Shown piece after piece: positions 1,497 through 26,455 of a stretch of DNA of 26,455 nt. The position numbers and the translations under genes are program-made. The DNA is taken from the UHGV virus genome UHGV-0075053; one strand, written 5' to 3'. The notes below the pieces were generated by a model, which was not told where the DNA came from, searched no databases, and was given only the letters and a program-made list of their open reading frames with translations. The first letter of the stretch is position 1, and each line of letters starts with the position of its first letter. This stretch comes from a virus.

Positions 1497-3623
1497 TTAA
1501 TCTTCTTCGCTTTCTGGCTGGAACATCAGCACGTAAAAAACATGCTGCTTCCCCCCAATTTTGCCGAGCGCCTTTTTCTTGTAACGGCGATCGTTACCCG
1601 CTTCCAGCATTCCGGCAGCACTCAACGCGCGGGCAAAGTGAGACGGATTAAATCCCTGTGCTATCTCACCCTCAAATACATGCGGGAACGTGTAAAAACG
1701 GAACTCGTCATCTTCGTTTCTGATACTCCCCTTTCTGTATCCGGCAAGCTCTTTAATCGGTAAATCACGCTCGTCAGAGTTGGGCCAGGGAAGGTATCTG
1801 CTGAATCCGAACGACGCTAAAAAAGCCTCTGCCTGTTCAACCATCTGTTTAAACTCCCTGTTACCCGTGCCGAACTCCTTCACCCAGGCATTAAAATTAT
1901 GCTGTATGGCATCGCGGCATTCCTGCTCATCCCAGCCAGTAACATGACCTGAAAGCACAAGCGCGGCCTCCAGTATGGCAAATCGCTCCCCCACACGGTG
2001 AACCTGTTCGCCGTAGCTCTCCGGTATCAGGTTGCGCCACCGCTCACGGCATGTCCTTACCGTGTCCTTTGCCTCCTGCTGGTGTTCTGCCAGCCATTTA
2101 ACCCACTCACGACCCGCCGCCCCGTGATTTGCTGTCCAGGCATCCTTTAACGCGTCTGCGTGCGCCTTTCCGGTGCTGTATTCGTGAAATTGCGTGGCTT
2201 TTTCCATCGGAACGTTAAGCAGGCGGACAAGCTGCCCCGCTTTGACTTTTATCCCCTCCGTTTTGAGGAATGTCTCAACGTCCATTTCTCCGGTGCTGAT
2301 TGCCACCGTTCGCCAGTGTTTTATCTCCCTGTTGCCGCCGTCCTTTGCCCCCTGTAATTTCCCGGAACCGTTAAACAGCGTATAGGCTGACGTGGACACC
2401 TCCCGCGCGTTTCCGGCCTGGCCTATTTCATCCAGGGGTAAAAGCCCGTCATTGTGTGCCTCTGCTTCGTTGGCGATACCTAACGCTGTGCCGTACCAGG
2501 TCAGCCGCTGCGCGTCCGGCTCTCCCCATAAACTTGATGCGATGTTCTGCGTTGTGGTCTTACCTGCCGATGACTGTTCGAAAAGATGTACCCCGAAGCC
2601 GTCAGCGCCCACCAGCCCGATTAATGGTGCGGATAACGATACCGCCACCCCCAGCATCATGGACGGATTACCACCAGCCAGTCGCGCCACGGTGTCGCGC
2701 CAGCCCTCCGCCGTTCCTGCCACGGAATAGCCATTAACAGCAGCAGTTTTTCCGGTAAACAGGACTGGCTTTTCGCAATCACCAATGACCGAACCGTCCG
2801 GCATGATGTACGCGCCAAAATGCCAGCCCGTTGTTGTGCTTAACTGCCATTCCTCATGGCTTCCGCTTAACTGCATCCAGTCAGCCAGGATTGCCCTGTA
2901 TTTACCGTTGGTTGTTACGTTCAGTCCGTGGTCTTTCAGCAGCCGCCAGCCGTCACGGTCGCCAATGCCACCGCACGGAACCGCCATTGTGATGACTTCA
3001 TGATTTGCTGGCTTTTTCCAGCGCATCACGCGGTAATGTTCTTTGCCGATTGTCCCCGTTCCCAGCAGTTCAAGCGGGGAACATAACCACGTCTCAGGCC
3101 GGATAATTTCGCCTGACTGCTTGTCCACTTTTGGCGTAACCCAGAAAACACCATCGGCGCGGCTTTCAACGCGGGGCTTTAATTCATCATCACCCGGGCT
3201 TTCTGTGATTTTTTTCTTTAAGGGCAACACCAGACTTTCCCCGCGCTCGTATTCGTCTTTGAGGCGAGGCAACTGGTCGGATAAATCCGCCGGGCTGGTG
3301 TCAGTTATCCCCGCGTATTCGTATACGGTCTTCACGCCAGCCACAGCCAGCAACGTGACGATCTGTGTAAGGCTACGTTCAGTGATGTGCCCTGCGCGGT
3401 AAATACGCACACACTGACGGCTATCATCAATAATTTGATAACCGGTAATATCTTTCAGGTGTTCATCTGACAGAACGACAGGCGGCACATTGTCGGCGGC
3501 AATATGCTTACCTGCCCATTCCTGCCACTCTTTCGCATGGCTCCACGCATCACTACCCGCAAAGATGATAACCTCCGTCATTTTGTCGGCTGGCTGGTGC
3601 TTTAAGTTTGGTGCGCGCTTCAT
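1497..3623 (-). CDS. primase/helicase-type replication protein of mobile elements (DUF927-like with P-loop)
   Basis: 708 aa; Walker-A-like SSAGKTTTQ; overall resemblance to primase-helicase proteins of E. coli integrative elements (from memory); start ATG overlaps the upstream gene stop (ATGA). Confidence 0.7.
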   Translation of the reverse strand: MKRAPNLKHQPADKMTEVIIFAGSDAWSHAKEWQEWAGKHIAADNVPPVVLSDEHLKDITGYQIIDDSRQCVRIYRAGHITERSLTQIVTLLAVAGVKTVYEYAGITDTSPADLSDQLPRLKDEYERGESLVLPLKKKITESPGDDELKPRVESRADGVFWVTPKVDKQSGEIIRPETWLCSPLELLGTGTIGKEHYRVMRWKKPANHEVITMAVPCGGIGDRDGWRLLKDHGLNVTTNGKYRAILADWMQLSGSHEEWQLSTTTGWHFGAYIMPDGSVIGDCEKPVLFTGKTAAVNGYSVAGTAEGWRDTVARLAGGNPSMMLGVAVSLSAPLIGLVGADGFGVHLFEQSSAGKTTTQNIASSLWGEPDAQRLTWYGTALGIANEAEAHNDGLLPLDEIGQAGNAREVSTSAYTLFNGSGKLQGAKDGGNREIKHWRTVAISTGEMDVETFLKTEGIKVKAGQLVRLLNVPMEKATQFHEYSTGKAHADALKDAWTANHGAAGREWVKWLAEHQQEAKDTVRTCRERWRNLIPESYGEQVHRVGERFAILEAALVLSGHVTGWDEQECRDAIQHNFNAWVKEFGTGNREFKQMVEQAEAFLASFGFSRYLPWPNSDERDLPIKELAGYRKGSIRNEDDEFRFYTFPHVFEGEIAQGFNPSHFARALSAAGMLEAGNDRRYKKKALGKIGGKQHVFYVLMFQPESEED

Positions 3624-12643: not shown

Positions 12644-12859
12644 TTACTCTCCCCGTGCAGCCTTACGCTTGTCTTCTCTGATTTTGAAGTACAGATTTGT
12701 CAGATAAGTCAGGAAGCCCAGAACCAGACTCCCAAGTACACCAATCGCAGCCCACTGTGACGGACTGACCTGATCAAGCCACTGTAAAAACCAGTAGCCA
12801 GCACTGCCTGCGGAGGTGCCGTAGGCAATGCCCGTTGAAATTTTGTCCATGGATTTCAT
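12644..12859 (-). CDS. class II holin, phage 21 S-type, with MKSM dual-start motif
   Basis: [71 protein letters not shown] is near-identical to S21 (from memory); dual starts M1 and M4. Confidence 0.9.
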
Positions 12860-13151: not shown

Positions 13152-13226
<75 letters not shown>

Positions 13227-13342
13227 ATCCTGGAACTCGGCTACCTGATTTTCATTCTGCACTGAATATCGAGAGAAGCTCTCTTTATTCGAGCCGGTAA
13301 GCGAACTTATCGTCTCGGGCTACGCCATCGCGTGGCCGAAAT

Positions 13343-13427
<85 letters not shown>

Positions 13428-13435
13428 GGACTTGA

Positions 13436-13511
<76 letters not shown>

Positions 13512-13513
13512 AC

Positions 13514-13590
13514 TGGACCGCCACCGGGGACTCGAACCTCGCACACTCAACTTAAAGGGTTGACGCTCTTTCCTGATGAGCTAGTGGCGG
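13514..13590 (-). tRNA. atypical tRNA-like gene, anticodon UUU (Lys-like) with unusual anticodon loop CCUUUAA
   Basis: Cloverleaf can be drawn: acceptor CCGCCAC/GTGGCGG, D-arm GCTC/GAGC, anticodon stem TCAAC/GTTGA, T-loop TTCGAGT, 3' CCA; but C at position 33 and an A-C mismatch in the T-stem are non-canonical. Confidence 0.45.
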
Positions 13591-13591
13591 T

Positions 13592-13667
13592 TGGTGGCCC
13601 TTGCTGGATTTGAACCAGCGACCTGGCGATTATGAGTCGCTCGCTCTCACCACTGAGCTAAAGGGCC
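13592..13667 (-). tRNA. tRNA with CAU anticodon, ileX/ileY-like (tRNA-Ile2 type; Met not excluded)
   Basis: Reverse complement GGCCCTTTAGCTCAGTGGTGAGAGCGAGCGACTCATAATCGCCAGGTCGCTGGTTCAAATCCAGCAAGGGCCACCA resembles E. coli ileX from memory. Confidence 0.7.
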
Positions 13668-13787
13668 GGGCGCAGGATAATAACGTTACGAAATCAATGT
13701 TGCAAGCATTCAAAAATCACCTGGTTAAAAATCACCCTTATCTCCTCCACCAGCGCATTCACCATGTCTATCCGAGATAAGTGACAC

Positions 13788-13811
13788 AAAAAAACCGCTT
13801 GATGCGGGTTT
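13788..13811 (-). terminator. rho-independent terminator upstream of the tRNA cluster (possible tR'-like)
   Basis: Hairpin CCGC-TTGAT-GCGGG flanked by a T-run on the minus strand (AAAAAAA on plus). Confidence 0.4.
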
Positions 13812-13931
13812 AAGTTGTGTGGCGAAGCGACCACTCTTAACAGATTAAGATAGTTTTTGCGTACGCGTTAGTGATTTTTTCATAATTATCTGTATCCTGT
13901 GGCTATTTCTCTTGCGCAAAGGATGCTTTTG

Positions 13932-14810
13932 ATGACGCAGCAACTCGAAAACATGCCAATAACAGAAATCGAAATTGCCTACGGTGGAGAGGCATACGCA
14001 GATAATCAGATCGACGCGAAAACATTAGGCGAAGCCTTAACCTCTCTTAGTGCCCTGATTGAACACGCCGAAAAAATAATTAATGGCGAAACAGCAGAGC
14101 CGAAAGTCAACATCAAGGCAACAAAAGAAGGTTCATTTACTTTGCTTGTTGCTGTGATGGGGAGCATAAAAACTATTAACGCCCTTGGCCTCGTTGCAGG
14201 TGGTGGAGTTGCCGCAGGTGGCGTACTCGGGATAATCGAATGGCTCAAAGGGCGTAAAATCAGCTCCATTGTCGTCGATGAACAAAAAGATACAGCAGAA
14301 ATCGAAGTGGATGGTGAGAAGGTTAAATGCAGTAACGACATTCAAAAATTAATAACCAGTCCAATCATCCGAAAAGAACTGGATAAATTAATCTATAAAC
14401 CCCTGCAGACTGAAAAACCATCCACGTTCTCAGTTTCACAGCAGAAGCATAAGGTAGTCAGGGTGACGCAAGCTGAAGCAGTAAGTTTTAAAACTGCAAA
14501 ATCCACCTTTGTCGAGAAAACGCACGTAACGACACGCCAAGCTAATGTACATTTTGCTAATGTTCGATTCAAGCAAGGCAAAAGCTGGGATATCATCCTG
14601 CCAAATGGCGAAGAAGTTAGCGCATCTATGAAAGATGAGGCTTTTCTTGAACGGGTTGAACACAACCAAGCAGCATTCTGTAAGGGTGATCTTTTTGTTG
14701 TAGAACTGACAGAAACAACAAAAGAAACAAATGGCGCGCTGTCTAAACCACGCTATAGTATTACTAAGGTTATACGCCACAGAGCGGCGGCAGATAGGAA
14801 ACTACTTTAA
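13932..14810 (+). CDS. hypothetical protein (292 aa) with central Gly-rich hydrophobic hairpin; first gene of a three-gene cassette
   Basis: ATG 13932 with AAAGGA RBS 8 nt upstream; candidate promoter TTGCGT-18-CATAAT at 13857-13886; hydrophobic segment FTLLVAVMGSIKTINALGLVAGGGVAAGGVLGIIEWL; no recognised catalytic motif. Confidence 0.6.
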   Translation: MTQQLENMPITEIEIAYGGEAYADNQIDAKTLGEALTSLSALIEHAEKIINGETAEPKVNIKATKEGSFTLLVAVMGSIKTINALGLVAGGGVAAGGVLGIIEWLKGRKISSIVVDEQKDTAEIEVDGEKVKCSNDIQKLITSPIIRKELDKLIYKPLQTEKPSTFSVSQQKHKVVRVTQAEAVSFKTAKSTFVEKTHVTTRQANVHFANVRFKQGKSWDIILPNGEEVSASMKDEAFLERVEHNQAAFCKGDLFVVELTETTKETNGALSKPRYSITKVIRHRAAADRKLL

Positions 14811-14813
14811 ATC

Positions 14814-15059
14814 ATGTCAATCCTAAGCATTATGCTTTACATCACTGTATTCATGGCTGTCGCAGCGACGGTCAGATATGCTGTGCTTAGGTTCTTGGTT
14901 TGGGTAAAGCCGAATGCGTATATTGAACTAACCTACACCGATCCTGAAGGCAGAACCGCTAAAAGGAAAGTCAGCGTTAGAAACGAAAATGACGCAGAAG
15001 AGTTGGCGCTACTGCTACGCGAACTCAAAACTCGCAACGAAGCAAGTGCAGGAAGGTGA
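14814..15059 (+). CDS. small membrane protein (81 aa, one N-terminal TM helix)
   Basis: Starts 4 nt after the upstream stop; N-terminal hydrophobic helix SILSIMLYITVFMAVAATV; charged C-terminal tail. Confidence 0.55.
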   Translation: MSILSIMLYITVFMAVAATVRYAVLRFLVWVKPNAYIELTYTDPEGRTAKRKVSVRNENDAEELALLLRELKTRNEASAGR

Positions 15060-15446
15060 ATGGCGAACACTAAATCCTACCTGGCAATGCAGGCATGGTT
15101 TACCACCCTTATCACTGCGGGATTGAATTTCCTTTTTGACTGGCTTCCTCAATTAGCCTTCTTCAAATCATTGGCGCCTGGAGCTGCTGTCGGCTTATCT
15201 CATGTGGTAATTCTTCTTATCGCTTACATAGGTTTGCCTACGCTTAATGATGTAAGAATGAAAAGGGAAATAAAAACGGCCAGAAAATTCATCACGAACT
15301 GCCTGGCCAACCCTAACCTAACACCAGACCAAATTGCGCACTACAACCAATGTCTTATCGATCTAGACAATAAGCTATTAAAAAACATAAATATTCGTAT
15401 TGATGCTTTATCTGACGCCGAATCGAAAGCTCAAGCAAACGAGTAG
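15060..15446 (+). CDS. small membrane protein (128 aa, two predicted TM helices)
   Basis: ATG immediately follows the upstream TGA; GGAAGG RBS; hydrophobic segments AWFTTLITAGLNFLFDWL and AAVGLSHVVILLIAYIGL. Confidence 0.55.
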   Translation: MANTKSYLAMQAWFTTLITAGLNFLFDWLPQLAFFKSLAPGAAVGLSHVVILLIAYIGLPTLNDVRMKREIKTARKFITNCLANPNLTPDQIAHYNQCLIDLDNKLLKNINIRIDALSDAESKAQANE

Positions 15447-15459
15447 TAACAGTCATAAC

Positions 15460-15819
15460 TTATGATAGAATCAAGCATATACATCCATCAATAAAGCCTA
15501 ATGCAGTTTGCAGCTCCTTTCTTATAGTTCCATCTGAGCACCTGCGTTTCTTCGCGATTGAGCGTAGAGAAACACCAATAACAAAGTGAGCTATGAGCAG
15601 CTCATATTCCTCTGGTTTATACTTTCGCAACCGAGCCACACAACCGTCTATCATGATGCCTTCATCATCATCACACTGGAGACGTGACTTTTTGCCATGT
15701 GGCAAAAGCCCCTTGAAGCCCGCTGCTATCGGTTGCCAATCGACACCGCTATTTTCTGCTGCAGCCCATGCCCCCCAGCGATCTAAAACCTCATACATAT
15801 CACGCCCCATTACCATCAC
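15460..15819 (-). CDS. late antiterminator Q (Qin QuuQ / phage 82 type); start probably an internal Met
   Basis: YEVLDRWGAWAA...WQPIAAGFKGLLP...SRLQCDDD resembles E. coli QuuD/QuuQ (from memory); directly downstream of rusA. Confidence 0.75.
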   Translation of the reverse strand: MMVMGRDMYEVLDRWGAWAAAENSGVDWQPIAAGFKGLLPHGKKSRLQCDDDEGIMIDGCVARLRKYKPEEYELLIAHFVIGVSLRSIAKKRRCSDGTIRKELQTALGFIDGCICLILS

Positions 15820-19125: not shown

Positions 19126-19935
19126 ATGACGAAAATTAGTGAACGATGGAAGCACAATGGCATTACTGAAGGTTATTGCAATATTTGTGGGAAATATGGC
19201 TTGCTCACAAAAGATCATGTTCCTCCAAAGTGCGCCATAACCTTAGGCCCTGTTTTGCAGAAAACAGTTAGCGAATTTTTTGGTATTCAGGAACCAGTTA
19301 AACCATTAAATGCTAAAAATGGCTCTTATTTCAGAACCATTTGCAGCCACTGTAACAATAAGGTATTAGGTGGGCTCGATGTTGCAATTGAAAATGTAAC
19401 AAAGTCCTTTAAAGAACAGTTAAGTCGATATATGAATGGTATGAATGTATATCCATTCATTAGAATACCTTTTGATAGCATATCTTTCACTAAGGCTATG
19501 ATTGGGCACGTGCTATCAGCAACTTCAGTTGAAGATTGTAAAAAAGAACCCGTAGATAGCCCCTTCTATACACCTTTAAAGGATTATGTTTTGGGTAAAA
19601 ATTCAAGTTTTGAGGAAACTCATGATATTTACTACTGGTTTTACCCACACAGAATGCACATATCCGCTCAAAGTGTAGCATTTATGAACGAAGGACATGT
19701 GGCATTTATTTGTGCTTTACATTTTTTTCCTATCGGTTTTATTATCACAATGAAAAATGAAGGAACATACCCTGCCCACTCTACAAAATTAGAACTTGAG
19801 GATAAATTCCTTACATTTAATATGACCTCTATAAATTATGAGTATACGACATTTCCATTTGTAAATCTTAAGGGAAACCAAATGTATGCGATAAGCAACG
19901 GTCATACTTGTGTGAGTTATCCAATAATTAAGTGA
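19126..19935 (+). CDS. hypothetical protein with N-terminal HNH/His-Me-finger-like motif and ~190-aa C-terminal domain of unknown function
   Basis: CNICGKYGLLTKDHVPPK...CSHCNN resembles the CxxC...DHxxP...CxxCN HNH pattern; GAGGGA RBS; AT-rich coding region; lone gene on the strand opposite its neighbours. Confidence 0.6.
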   Translation: MTKISERWKHNGITEGYCNICGKYGLLTKDHVPPKCAITLGPVLQKTVSEFFGIQEPVKPLNAKNGSYFRTICSHCNNKVLGGLDVAIENVTKSFKEQLSRYMNGMNVYPFIRIPFDSISFTKAMIGHVLSATSVEDCKKEPVDSPFYTPLKDYVLGKNSSFEETHDIYYWFYPHRMHISAQSVAFMNEGHVAFICALHFFPIGFIITMKNEGTYPAHSTKLELEDKFLTFNMTSINYEYTTFPFVNLKGNQMYAISNGHTCVSYPIIK

Positions 19936-22112: not shown

Positions 22113-22324
22113 GAATCATTCTTTCCTTCGTTCGAGGTGCTATCCTGCTTCTTGTAAAGTTCTGGGTTGTATTTCAATTCACCGTTAGTAATTTCATCCA
22201 GTTCCATTGCGCGAAGTTTGGGAATAACTGCTTTCCACCGCACAACAGCCACATGTGAAATTCCAAGAGCCTCAGCTACTAGTCGCTTTTTTTTGAAATA
22301 GCGCAGAACATCATCTTTGAACAT
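22109..22324 (-). CDS. Cro/YdaS-like HTH regulator
   Basis: 71 aa; HTH-like RLVAEALGISHVAVVRW; divergent from the repressor gene; ATGA overlap with the downstream gene. Confidence 0.6.
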   Translation of the reverse strand: MFKDDVLRYFKKKRLVAEALGISHVAVVRWKAVIPKLRAMELDEITNGELKYNPELYKKQDSTSNEGKNDS

Positions 22325-22353
22325 AAAACTCTCCTGTTATTTCGAGCAGGAGG

Positions 22354-22415
22354 GTAACAATAGTTACATAGCAATGTCAACCATAGCAACATCACTTGGT
22401 AGTAACATTGGTTAC
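22354..22415. promoter_or_regulatory. immunity-region operator sites (GTAAC-N4-GTTAC)
   Basis: GTAACAATAGTTAC (22354-22367) and GTAACATTGGTTAC (22402-22415) between the divergent Cro-like and repressor genes. Confidence 0.55.
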
Positions 22416-23090
22416 ATGAAAAACACTATCAGCGAACGTATTCGGAATCGTCGAAAAGACGTTGGATTAACCCAACAGCAGGTTGCGAAAGCAATCGGCA
22501 TATCTCGTGTATCCGTAACAAAATGGGAAAATGGCTCTTCAAAACCTGACGGTGAGAATTTGCATCTACTGTCAAAATTGCTTTCCAAATCTCCTGAATG
22601 GATTCTTTATGGAAAGGACGGTCACGATAAAACCGATGATCTGCGTCTGAATCAGTATCTTTACATTAGTGACAACATCGCCCGGTTGCCCGTTTTAACG
22701 TGGGAACAGGCTGGTTATTGGGATATGAGTTGTCCAGTAACCGAGATTCCTGGCATTAAGAATTGGGTTGATGTCATGACAAAAACCGCTGAAAACTCTT
22801 TTTTATTGCATGTTGAGGGAGATGCGATGACAAACTCTAACGGCCTCCCAACCATCCCCGATGGATCTACCGTGCTGATCACACCATGCTCAAGTAACAT
22901 TAGAGAACTGGTGGGAAAAATAATCTTAATCCAATTGGAAGGAACGCCAAACGTAACACTAAAAAAAGTTGCGATTGACGGACCAAACATCTATCTGTTG
23001 TCACTGAATCCGCTTTACAAACCCATCGAACTGAATGGTGGTTACACCATTAAAGGTAAAGTTTCACAAATACATCAATACTTAGACTGA
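22416..23090 (+). CDS. CI-like prophage repressor (XRE-type HTH plus S24 LexA-like peptidase domain)
   Basis: N-terminal HTH (GLTQQQVAKAIGISRVSVTKWENG) and C-terminal S24-like domain (EGDAM...LKKV); start at ATG 22416 would be leaderless-like, ATG 22374 is the alternative; ORF-track start 22317 is TTG. Confidence 0.8.
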   Translation: MKNTISERIRNRRKDVGLTQQQVAKAIGISRVSVTKWENGSSKPDGENLHLLSKLLSKSPEWILYGKDGHDKTDDLRLNQYLYISDNIARLPVLTWEQAGYWDMSCPVTEIPGIKNWVDVMTKTAENSFLLHVEGDAMTNSNGLPTIPDGSTVLITPCSSNIRELVGKIILIQLEGTPNVTLKKVAIDGPNIYLLSLNPLYKPIELNGGYTIKGKVSQIHQYLD

Positions 23091-24393: not shown

Positions 24394-24568
24394 AAAGTGA
24401 ATTTTGTGATGCGGTGAATGCGGCTCAGCGCACGCGGAACAGTTAAAACAAGCGGTCTTTTACGGGCGTAACGGGAATGCTCTGTATCCGGCGTTAATTG
24501 TTAACTGGTTAACGTCACCTGGAGGCACCAGGCACTGCATCACAAAATTCATTGTTGAGGACGCGATA

Positions 24569-24757
24569 ATGGAAACGTTATTACCAAACGTTAATACGTC
24601 TGAAGGTTGTTTTGATATTGGTGTTCTGCTCAGTAACCGGGAGTTTACGGAAGATGCCATTAAGATGAGAAAATATGAACCTTATCTTCTCAATGATAAT
24701 TCCATACTTTCCAGAATTGCCCTTCTTGAACTTGGTATTATCGGAGAACAGCAGTGA
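24569..24757 (+). CDS. dicB: cell-division inhibitor DicB
   Basis: METLLPNVNTSEGCFDIGVLLSNREFTEDAIKMRKYEP... matches the DicB N-terminus (MKTLLPNVNTSEGCFEIGV..., from memory); 62 aa. Confidence 0.8.
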   Translation: METLLPNVNTSEGCFDIGVLLSNREFTEDAIKMRKYEPYLLNDNSILSRIALLELGIIGEQQ

Positions 24758-24942
24758 CTTCAGCATTTGCGCTGGTGATGACCGTTTTTCTTATAACGGG
24801 TGAGCCACAAAATGTGATTACCGGAATTTATGACAGTAAGTCATCCTGCATTCAGGTAAGGGACGAACAAAAAATCCCCGGTGAATGCCTCCCGTTAAAA
24901 AAAGTATCGCTGAACCTGAATAACGAAATACCGGCTGGATAA
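24754..24942 (+). CDS. YdfD-like small membrane protein
   Basis: 62 aa with N-terminal hydrophobic helix; GTG start overlaps the dicB stop; same position as ydfD in Qin. Confidence 0.5.
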   Translation: MTSAFALVMTVFLITGEPQNVITGIYDSKSSCIQVRDEQKIPGECLPLKKVSLNLNNEIPAG

Positions 24943-25037
24943 CCCGCCAGCCATATTAACGCCATACCAACGGATTAAAAATGCCAGCAATGGCAGGGAT
25001 TCGTTCACCCTGAAATCTGTAATGAGGTTAAAACACA

Positions 25038-26455
25038 ATGAGTAAAATCTTTATTTGCGCTGCTATTCCTGACGAACAGGCCATAAAAGAAGATAGCGCT
25101 GTTGCGGTGGCCACTGCCATTGAAGCCGGTGATGAACGTCGCGCCCGCGCAAAATTTCACTGGCAATTCCTGGAACATTATCCGGCTGCTCAGGACTGCG
25201 CTTATAAATTTCTTGTTTGCGAGGATAAACCCGGTATACCCCGCCCTGCCCTCGATTCCTGGGATGCTGAATATATGCAGGAAAACCGCTGGGATGAGGA
25301 GTCTGCTTCCTTTGTCCCGGTTGAGACTGAATCCGATCCGATGAACGTCACTTTTGACAAGCTGGCCCCTGAAGTACAGAACGCTGTCATGGTTAAGTTC
25401 GACACATGTGAAAACATCACCGTTGATATGGTTATTAGCGCACAGGAATTGTTGCAGGAAGACATGGCAACATTCGACGGACATATCGTTGAAGCGTTGA
25501 TGAAAATGCCAGAAGTTAACGCCATGTATCCGGAGCTTAAGCTGCATGCCATCGGGTGGGTTAAGCATAAATGTAAGCCTGGTGCCAAATGGCCCGAAAT
25601 TCAGGCAGAGATGCGCATCTGGAAAAAACGTCGCGAAGGTGAACGTAAGGAAACCGGAAAATACACGTCTGTTATTGATCTCGCCCGCGCCAGAACCAAT
25701 CAACAGCACAGTGAAAATTCAACAGGAAAAATCAGCCCGGTCATTGCTGCCATTCATCGCGAATACAAGCAGACATGGAAAACACTGGATGACGAACTGG
25801 CCTACGCTCTCTGGCCTGGTGATGTGGATGCCGGAAACATTGACGGCAGCATCCATCGCTGGGCAAAAAATGAAGTTATCGACAACGACCGCGAAGACTG
25901 GAAGCGTATCTCGGCATCAATGCGCAAACAGCCTGATGCCCTTCGCTACGACCGCCAAACTATTTTTGGCCTTGTCCGTGAGCGTCCGATCGACATTCAC
26001 AAAGATCCCGTAGCACTGAACAAATACATCACTGAATACCTGACTACCAAGGGCGTGTTTGAAGATGACGAAGGAACAAATCAGGGCACAGCTGGTACTC
26101 TCCCGTCACCAGTACCAGAAACTGATGCAGTGGAAACGGCAATGCCGGACAACGAAAAAACCGAATGCGAAGTGGAAGACGAACCATCTGTAGAGCGTGA
26201 GGGACCGTTCTACTTCCTTTTCACCGATAAGGACGGCGAAAAATACGGTCGCGCAAACAAACTTTCTGGTCTGGAAAAAGCACTGGCCCTGGGAGCTACG
26301 GAAATCACAAAAGAGGAATACTTCGCACGTAAAAACGGCACGTACTCAGGTTCACAACAAAATACTGGTGCATCTGACACGATCGCACAACCAGAGCCGG
26401 TAAAAGTTACCGCTGACGAAGTAAACAAAATTATGCAGGCAGCCAATATCAGCCA
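25038..26455 (+). CDS. RecE/YdfE-like protein, 5' partial (runs off the window end)
   Basis: Uninterrupted reading frame from ATG 25038 to the window end (more than 470 codons), not in the ORF track for lack of a stop; acidic; early-left position after dicB/ydfD; family assignment from memory only. Confidence 0.5.
   Translation, partial: MSKIFICAAIPDEQAIKEDSAVAVATAIEAGDERRARAKFHWQFLEHYPAAQDCAYKFLVCEDKPGIPRPALDSWDAEYMQENRWDEESASFVPVETESDPMNVTFDKLAPEVQNAVMVKFDTCENITVDMVISAQELLQEDMATFDGHIVEALMKMPEVNAMYPELKLHAIGWVKHKCKPGAKWPEIQAEMRIWKKRREGERKETGKYTSVIDLARARTNQQHSENSTGKISPVIAAIHREYKQTWKTLDDELAYALWPGDVDAGNIDGSIHRWAKNEVIDNDREDWKRISASMRKQPDALRYDRQTIFGLVRERPIDIHKDPVALNKYITEYLTTKGVFEDDEGTNQGTAGTLPSPVPETDAVETAMPDNEKTECEVEDEPSVEREGPFYFLFTDKDGEKYGRANKLSGLEKALALGATEITKEEYFARKNGTYSGSQQNTGASDTIAQPEPVKVTADEVNKIMQAANIS

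Follow-up and report, generated by a model that had tools for sequence, protein, structure and literature searches.

The window analysed here, the 26,455-nucleotide virus genome UHGV-0075053 taken at its full length, corresponds to a lambda-like E. coli prophage and carries next to its Q antiterminator gene a cassette of three tightly packed genes, named A, B and C in what follows. We read it as an anti-phage defence module of the prophage, the proteobacterial counterpart, with three genes, of the gp29/gp30-type system of phage MichelleMyBell. We give this reading a probability of about 0.6. It is drawn from several converging features: the homology of protein A to gp29, its listing in the candidate defence family PDC-S42, the mobility of the three genes as a unit, the defence genes found in their neighbourhood, their location on the strand of the prophage repressor and the selection that maintains them.

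A candidate defence family related to gp29

Protein A is a clear member of PADLOC family PDC-S42 (PDLC05015; E 2.8e-53, with residues 11-288 aligned to positions 4-294 of the 302 in the profile), of NCBIfam NF053583 (225.5 bits for a cut-off of 60) and of PHROG 3243 (phrog_3243, E 2.4e-94), to which PHROG assigns no function. The protein itself has nothing significant in Pfam and falls below DUF7946, a family matched by 53 of 137 diverse members of the A family over their N-terminal ~150 residues or less. A first-pass annotation, made from the sequence alone, had rated the cassette the most likely undescribed system in the window. We must now qualify this view, as A is catalogued (PDC-S42, NF053583, PHROG 3243 and, in part, DUF7946) and related to gp29, while the trio that it forms with B and C is apparently new. 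The PDC systems are untested candidates, proposed because they occur embedded in BREX, DISARM or type I restriction-modification loci (Payne et al., bioRxiv 10.1101/2024.01.29.577857); the accessible part of the supplementary tables of that preprint has no PDC-S42 entry, and the copy of the cassette in the window is not inside a BREX, DISARM or type I restriction-modification locus. A search of the literature for the PHROG and NCBIfam identifiers and for protein accessions returned no relevant paper.

The predicted model of A is confident (pLDDT 92.6): it begins with an N-terminal alpha/beta domain, continues with a Gly-rich uncharged segment (~81-105) and a middle domain, and ends in a C-terminal OB-fold. 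It has no whole-chain match in the PDB, and the profile of A finds nothing significant among PDB sequences. Foldseek, run with this model, retrieved a 184-residue protein of mycobacteriophage Pipsqueaks (gp31; E 9.7e-8), which is 99.5% identical to MichelleMyBell gp29 and which matches the PDC-S42 hidden Markov model (E 8.7e-13). Alignment of the A-family profile to Pipsqueaks gp31 with hhalign (probability 97.4%, E 1.5e-11) covers the C-terminal ~160 residues of the family, and these cluster N phages encode the N-terminal half immediately before it, in a different frame (hmmsearch E 4.5e-4). Full-length orthologues are found in Gordonia phage Ohgeesy (gp32, 300 residues) and in the M. abscessus prophage prophiT48-1 (gp86, 310 residues), both with a small protein (67 or 49 residues) coming next, that of Ohgeesy being annotated as a membrane protein; here hhalign pairs the A family with Ohgeesy gp32 over 266 columns (probability 98.9%, E 1.5e-17). 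The GenBank record of a Vibrio relative itself bears the note 'MMB_gp29_gp30__gp29'. At the level of sequence profiles, A is a full-length homologue of the gp29 family.

It may be observed in passing that, at this locus of Pipsqueaks (L072 5365-6304) and of MichelleMyBell (KF986246 ~24400-25311), the annotated protein of 184 residues is just the C-terminal part of the family, the N-terminal domain lying in a stretch annotated as non-coding. This split could correspond to a frameshifted gene, to a programmed frameshift or to a split gene.

As for gp29/gp30, a MichelleMyBell prophage cuts the plating of phage Tweety by 4-5 orders of magnitude (PMC8549241), and this defence is described as typical of abortive infection, adsorption and injection proceeding (PMC6426606). 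A secondary source calls gp29 toxic and sees in gp30 a putative membrane protein (PMC11856565). DefenseFinder, where the pair is the system MMB_gp29_gp30, has detected it in Actinobacteria only (bioRxiv 10.1101/2023.03.30.534874).

Three genes that travel together

A first search for homologues of A gave 33 clusters, at 37-100% identity, which were traced to contigs. The order A-B-C recurs in every proteobacterial context examined, together with the size of the products (284-308 residues for A, 79-87 for B and 110-161 for C). These contexts are very diverse. The trio sits between repressor and lysis genes in a Mu-like prophage of Orbaceae and Gilliamella, in the nin region of lambdoid prophages of E. 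coli and Raoultella, beside tail genes but on the opposite strand in Pantoea, and next to the integrase of a PM2-like Vibrio prophage; it is also carried by a degraded element in Serratia, a 6-kb contig encoding a MobA relaxase, the edge of a satellite-like VapE/resolvase island in Enterobacter, the Pseudomonas megaplasmid pBM413 and marine viral contigs, with A at 30-34% identity in the latter. An E. coli variant of the cassette, at 52%, adjoins hok. The linkage of the three genes is obligate in Proteobacteria, and the cassette is mobile as a unit on many types of elements. In Tatumella saanichensis (L002 2124-4522) a DRT type 8 system, identified by Drt8 (E 7.9e-151) and by its PD-(D/E)xK partner RTasPDDEXK (E 3e-73), is present ~1.5 kb upstream of the local copy, with a 157-residue open reading frame in between.

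The family of A extends much further. An exhaustive profile search collected 2,926 clusters (at 50% identity, E <= 0.001), and nearly all of the 150 best matches listed are 275-320 residues long; a scan of genome contigs for related loci gave three of them, and tblastn of A against 50,697 isolated phage genomes a single match, in a Vibrio prophage element. In the Gram-positive temperate phages examined (from Firmicutes and Bifidobacterium) a full-length A-like gene is solitary and placed within the lysogeny module: ORF19 of Lactobacillus phage A2 lies between endolysin and integrase, ORF27 of Listeria phage 188 adjoins the integrase, and Bifidobacterium phage Bbif-1 has a similar isolated gene, the three proteins matching PDC-S42 with E 1.8e-39 to 6.6e-77. 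Among 5426 complete E. coli genomes the exact cassette of the window is present in 37, and sister prophages exist without it. One sister prophage that has the same cassette, in E. coli E66 (L001 16920-18414), carries a further accessory pair, a serine/threonine kinase and a PP2C phosphatase, which lies in the early region next to hokD and on the opposite strand.

All three genes are real and under strong purifying selection. The ratio of non-synonymous to synonymous substitutions (dN/dS) is 0.055 for A, 0.082 for B and 0.060 for C when the window is compared with viral contig L037, and 0.047, 0.061 and 0.038 with L059, these two copies being diverged (dS 0.5-1.5). It is this range of 0.04-0.08, together with the recurrence of the trio down to 30% identity of A, that establishes them as genes. 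The argument is of particular importance for B, which is left uncalled by the NCBI annotation (PGAP) in RefSeq genomes (for example L001 13113-13361) and yet has a conservation that reaches from E. coli to marine viral contigs: purifying selection tells us that it is a gene.

Hydropathy gives B one clear N-terminal membrane helix, and the basic residues that follow suggest a cytoplasmic tail, in which P33, G46 and L64 are nearly invariant in an alignment of 20 orthologues. In C a strong hydrophobic segment (35-63) comes after a weaker one (~8-30), and the protein would be a two-helix hairpin with a cytoplasmic charged helix. In A the same analysis finds a 21-residue uncharged Gly-rich stretch, and an uncharged segment of 16-22 residues followed by basic residues is conserved in full-length relatives sampled from several phyla. 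The first-pass annotation had credited all three proteins with hydrophobic segments, including a Gly-rich hairpin in A; this holds for B and C, whereas a membrane hairpin in A is not established, because the confident model folds the Gly-rich segment inside the protein. Its remark that no enzyme motif is recognizable in the cassette remains valid. The profile and structure searches that it had called for gave much for A, with the family matches and the Foldseek link to a relative of gp29, and PHROG matches for B (phrog_27630, E 8e-57) and C (phrog_26468, E 6.7e-89). Neither B nor C has relatives in Pfam, PADLOC, NCBIfam or PDB, or homologues that bear a name; their profiles find nothing significant among PDB sequences, Pfam finds nothing for the C family, and the homologues of C are all named 'hypothetical protein'.

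The cassette in its prophage

The features of the region are collected in Table 1. The packing of three plus-strand open reading frames, with gaps of 3 and 0 nucleotides, is confirmed by the list of reading frames and by the sequence: three nucleotides separate the TAA codon of A from the ATG codon of B, and the TGA codon of B abuts the ATG codon of C. The region is indeed richer in A+T than what surrounds it, with a G+C content of 0.42-0.43 over 14001-15500 and of 0.48-0.50 in the flanks. A ribosome-binding site can be read for A (AAGGA at 13919-13923, 8 nucleotides before ATG) and for C (GGAAGG, 5 nucleotides before ATG); B has none that is readable, just the proximity of its start to the stop of A. 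A GTG start at 13899 would extend A to 303 residues.

Table 1. Features of the cassette and its surroundings in the window
Feature	Position	Strand	Remarks
P21-type holin	12644-12859	-	PF04971, beyond the tRNAs
Five tRNAs	13152-13667	-	Left of the cassette
Conserved element	13783-13889		85% identity to L022 (N39) 3400-3511, 82% to L023 (S3) 401-488
Candidate cassette promoter	13857-13886	+	TTGCGT (13857-13862), 18-nucleotide spacer, CATAAT (13881-13886); read from the sequence
Direct repeat TCATAA, left copy	13880-13885		Junction comparison with N39 (L022)
Gene A	13932-14810	+	292 residues, core protein (PDC-S42 / LAPAL_fam / gp29-like)
Gene B	14814-15059	+	81 residues, N-terminal membrane helix and short conserved tail
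Gene C	15060-15446	+	128 residues, two hydrophobic segments, basic stretch, long charged C-terminal helix
Direct repeat TCATAA, right copy	15453-15458		Immediately beside the Q stop codon; junction comparison with N39
Q antiterminator	15460-15819	-	119 residues, Q21/PF06530 type, Pfam E 3.8e-45; stop codon 15460-15462

A plausible promoter had been announced along with the ribosome-binding site of A. A scan for consensus promoters found none on the plus strand upstream of A, its matches being not above chance, and what remains is the weaker TTGCGT-18-CATAAT, a candidate promoter of the cassette. Its geometry is kept in viral contigs L037, L038 and L059 and, as TTGCGA-18-TAAAAA, in the unrelated context of L041. 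The strand of the cassette is that of the cI-like repressor (HTH_3 and Peptidase_S24 domains) at 22317-23090. It had been described as antisense to the late operon: this is right as to the strand, while late transcripts may or may not cross the cassette, since the conserved element, adjacent to Q in a relative lacking the cassette, is here on the side of the tRNAs. The late promoter may lie either in this element or, as TTGATG-18-TATCAT (15491-15462), in the 3' end of Q.

A comparison of prophages helps us to understand how this arrangement came about. To the right of the window Q come RusA, then a DUF968 protein. In the backbone of E. coli XDL the order is DUF968, RusA, a Q of 229 residues, then the tRNAs; in the window a 36-codon remnant of such a PF06323-type Q, labelled 'antiterminator' in RefSeq, is observed at ~13725-13835 on the minus strand. 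As only this remnant is left, the block formed by the 119-residue Q and the cassette has displaced most of the older Q module. E. coli N39 lacks the cassette; its Q gene shares 95% identity with that of the window, and the homologue of the conserved element comes straight after the stop codon of this Q. By comparison with N39, the cassette is a stretch of ~1.57 kb between 6-bp TCATAA direct repeats, a bracketing compatible with insertion or with precise deletion via microhomology. The element has on its minus strand a hairpin and T8 terminator (~13795-13815), and it may be a late promoter/terminator region or a shared promoter region for cargo. Three diverged contigs that differ in their flanks, L037, L038 and L059, have the element, the cassette and Q (13809-15805) as one colinear block, with a DNA identity of 70-86%, and the association of Q with the cassette is therefore old; Q adjoins the cassette in L050 as well.

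Other genes occupy the same slot. In E. coli S3 (L023 536-3394) the genes that come after a related Q encode a Dcm methyltransferase and, on the other strand, a DUF262 protein, with matches to NsnA (E 5.6e-46) and to PD-T4-2_A (E 4.3e-27), and a HEPN nuclease, whereas N39 (L022 1991-3277) has, past the conserved element, a scabin-like ADP-ribosyltransferase and the B subunit of a subtilase-type AB5 toxin. The slot downstream of Q is a cargo hotspot for defence and toxin genes. The moron position assigned to the cassette at first sight is in keeping with this: it is accessory cargo, in a hotspot, on the repressor strand.

Two further observations concern the rest of the window. The tRNA Thr-Tyr-Gly block (13152-13512, minus strand) is 100% identical to the tRNA-Tyr/Thr/Gly cluster of every complete E. 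coli genome searched, which we take to be the chromosomal thrU-tyrU-glyT segment, and sister prophages have Ile-(Lys)-Thr-Gly tRNAs, with no Tyr. This suggests recombination between the tRNA array of the prophage and the tRNA operon of the host. A 269-residue open reading frame (19126-19935, plus strand, that of the repressor) lies in the stretch of lowest G+C content in the window (~0.35) and has no Pfam match; it may be a second cargo gene.

What the cassette may do

The resemblance to MichelleMyBell gp29/gp30 is one of layout as well as of the core protein. Both systems have a large gene and, right behind it, one or several small genes for membrane proteins whose frames overlap or abut, and both lie in an accessory region of a prophage close to lysis or integration genes. 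The differences are the presence of two membrane partners (81 and 128 residues) instead of one of 67 residues, the host, a diderm proteobacterium where gp29/gp30 was reported in Actinobacteria only, and the Gly-rich central segment, longer and more hydrophobic in A than in gp29. With PDC-S42 the likeness of A is one of clear membership, shared by Gram-positive, actinobacterial, Vibrio and Pseudomonas relatives; yet PDC-S42 is an untested single-gene ('S' class) candidate, whereas B and C always accompany A in the Proteobacteria examined, and PADLOC has no model for either of them. Lambda RexAB and gp30/gp31 of mycobacteriophage Sbash provide another parallel, that of a lysogen-expressed soluble protein of ~280-290 residues combined with one or several small membrane proteins, if we may suppose that the cassette is similarly expressed; both have been proposed to collapse the membrane potential on infection (PMC6426596). 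The first-pass annotation had evoked RexAB for the soluble-plus-membrane design while seeing no sequence similarity, and we concur on both counts. Scans of Pfam and PADLOC give no DUF4747, RexA or RexB match with E up to 1, RexB has four membrane helices where B has one and C two, and the genomic position differs as well. The soluble-plus-membrane layout is retained, with exclusion or defence as its best reading.

We may then imagine the following scenario. A lysogen would express A, B and C from the weak promoter of the cassette, on the repressor strand. In the cytoplasm A would sense some feature of an infecting phage by means of its OB-fold and middle domain, while B and C, as small proteins of the inner membrane, would dock or restrain it. 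Upon sensing, the A-B-C complex would harm membrane function, possibly through the Gly-rich segment of A and the helices of B and C, and infection would abort ahead of the release of progeny. The defence activity of this particular cassette is something that we infer, as are its trigger, its membrane target and the role of each protein, and any given step of the scenario is much less likely than the defence module as a whole.

Several points weigh against this interpretation and temper our confidence. The identity between A and the gp29 family is only ~18-22%, a distance at which function may have drifted. The family profiles of B and C do not detect gp30 (as Pipsqueaks gp32; hhalign probability 0.3% and 3.6%), so that the partnership of the large protein with membrane proteins is analogous, not demonstrably homologous. 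The details of the MichelleMyBell phenotype themselves rest on secondary sources citing Dedrick et al. (2017), and the literature searched contains no paper that names PDC-S42, LAPAL or DUF7946 and no experiment on any member of PDC-S42. The candidate promoter is weak and under the threshold of our scan. The Gly-rich stretch of A, to which a role at the membrane might be ascribed, is modelled as a helix-loop-helix inside a globular protein. A possible link of A with EACC1 (PF19953; E 0.016, 15.6 bits for a gathering threshold of 23.6), a protease-activated pore-forming toxin (bioRxiv 10.1101/2025.11.14.688446), was considered and rejected, because just 4 of the 137 family members reproduce the match (E <= 0.1), all of them below threshold; there is no adjacent protease gene. 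Finally, curators at NCBI have named NF053583 'LAPAL motif-containing putative phage structural protein'.

This name leads us to a rival explanation, a structural, morphogenetic or lysis-accessory function for the phage. Homology of the 292-residue protein to a virion protein had been put forward from the start as a finding that would speak against a cargo system, and formally the name of the NCBIfam family answers to it. Lysis genes are neighbours here, as they are in the Mu-like prophage of Orbaceae, in cluster N phages and in Lactobacillus phage A2, and tail genes are neighbours in Pantoea, which would go in the same direction. The protein A of the window has no literal LAPAL motif, with AKTLGEAL at the aligned position. 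The genomic contexts nevertheless argue against the label, which we consider to be a guess: the genes are on the strand opposite to the late genes both here and in Pantoea, and they are found in early (nin) regions, beside integrases, and on elements that encode no virion, namely plasmids and a satellite-like island. The rarity of the cassette in E. coli, the existence of sister prophages that manage without it, the lone tblastn match among isolated phage genomes and the want of any holin, spanin or structural assignment in Pfam or PHROG make a structural role highly improbable.

There are two other explanations. The cassette might be an addiction or stabilization module of the toxin-antitoxin kind, or some other lysogenic conversion that helps the element or its host while phages are not its target. 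In favour of this, the cassette is found alike on plasmids, satellite-like islands and prophages, gp29 is reported to be toxic (PMC11856565), and the 52% E. coli variant lies next to hok. We still find this unlikely, as Pfam, PADLOC and NCBIfam reveal no similarity to known families of toxins or antitoxins, a homologue of A has a demonstrated anti-phage phenotype, and the neighbours of the cassette and the other occupants of its slot are defence systems; besides, many toxin-antitoxin-like modules act in defence, and the two ideas overlap. Alternatively, an A-B-C complex in the inner membrane might block the entry of DNA without killing the cell, an envelope superinfection exclusion comparable to that by P22 SieA, T4 Imm/Sp or Charlie gp32. 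The obligate presence of two membrane partners in diderm hosts and their absence from the copies in phages of monoderms hint at a role specific to the envelope, position and strand fit a gene expressed by the lysogen, and a neighbour of the Listeria phage 188 gene is annotated as a superinfection immunity protein. Yet the related MichelleMyBell system is described as resembling abortive infection, with adsorption and injection proceeding (PMC6426606), and A, mostly large and soluble in its model and endowed with an OB-fold, fits a cytoplasmic sensor better than the plug of a channel. Exclusion appears to us quite unlikely, and the defence module is preferred.

A widespread family and a possible tractable model

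If we extend the defence reading to all relatives of A, a broader picture may be sketched, which we hold as tentative and, on balance, doubtful. PDC-S42 and gp29/gp30 would be one ancient, pan-bacterial defence superfamily of mobile elements (~2,900 clusters at 50% identity), built around a protein of ~300 residues that ends with an OB-fold and whose overall fold is without solved counterpart. Proteobacteria would have gained two inner-membrane partners, the OB-fold protein sensing infection and its partners executing or gating membrane damage. Should this be true, the superfamily would share its mechanism with no characterized defence system.

Be that as it may, profile comparisons connect an untested single-gene candidate, PDC-S42, with gp29/gp30, a system reported for Actinobacteria only, and they make it clear that in Proteobacteria three genes form a strictly conserved unit, one of them being usually missed by annotation. 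In the literature searched, neither the obligate A-B-C trio of Proteobacteria nor the unification of PDC-S42 with gp29/gp30 seems to have been described. If the E. coli cassette is active, it would offer a tractable genetic model for a family that is widespread among prophages, both tailed and tailless, among satellite-like islands and among megaplasmids. The slot downstream of Q in lambdoid prophages, a hotspot that houses toxins in pathogenic E. coli, would then gain a further documented type of cargo.

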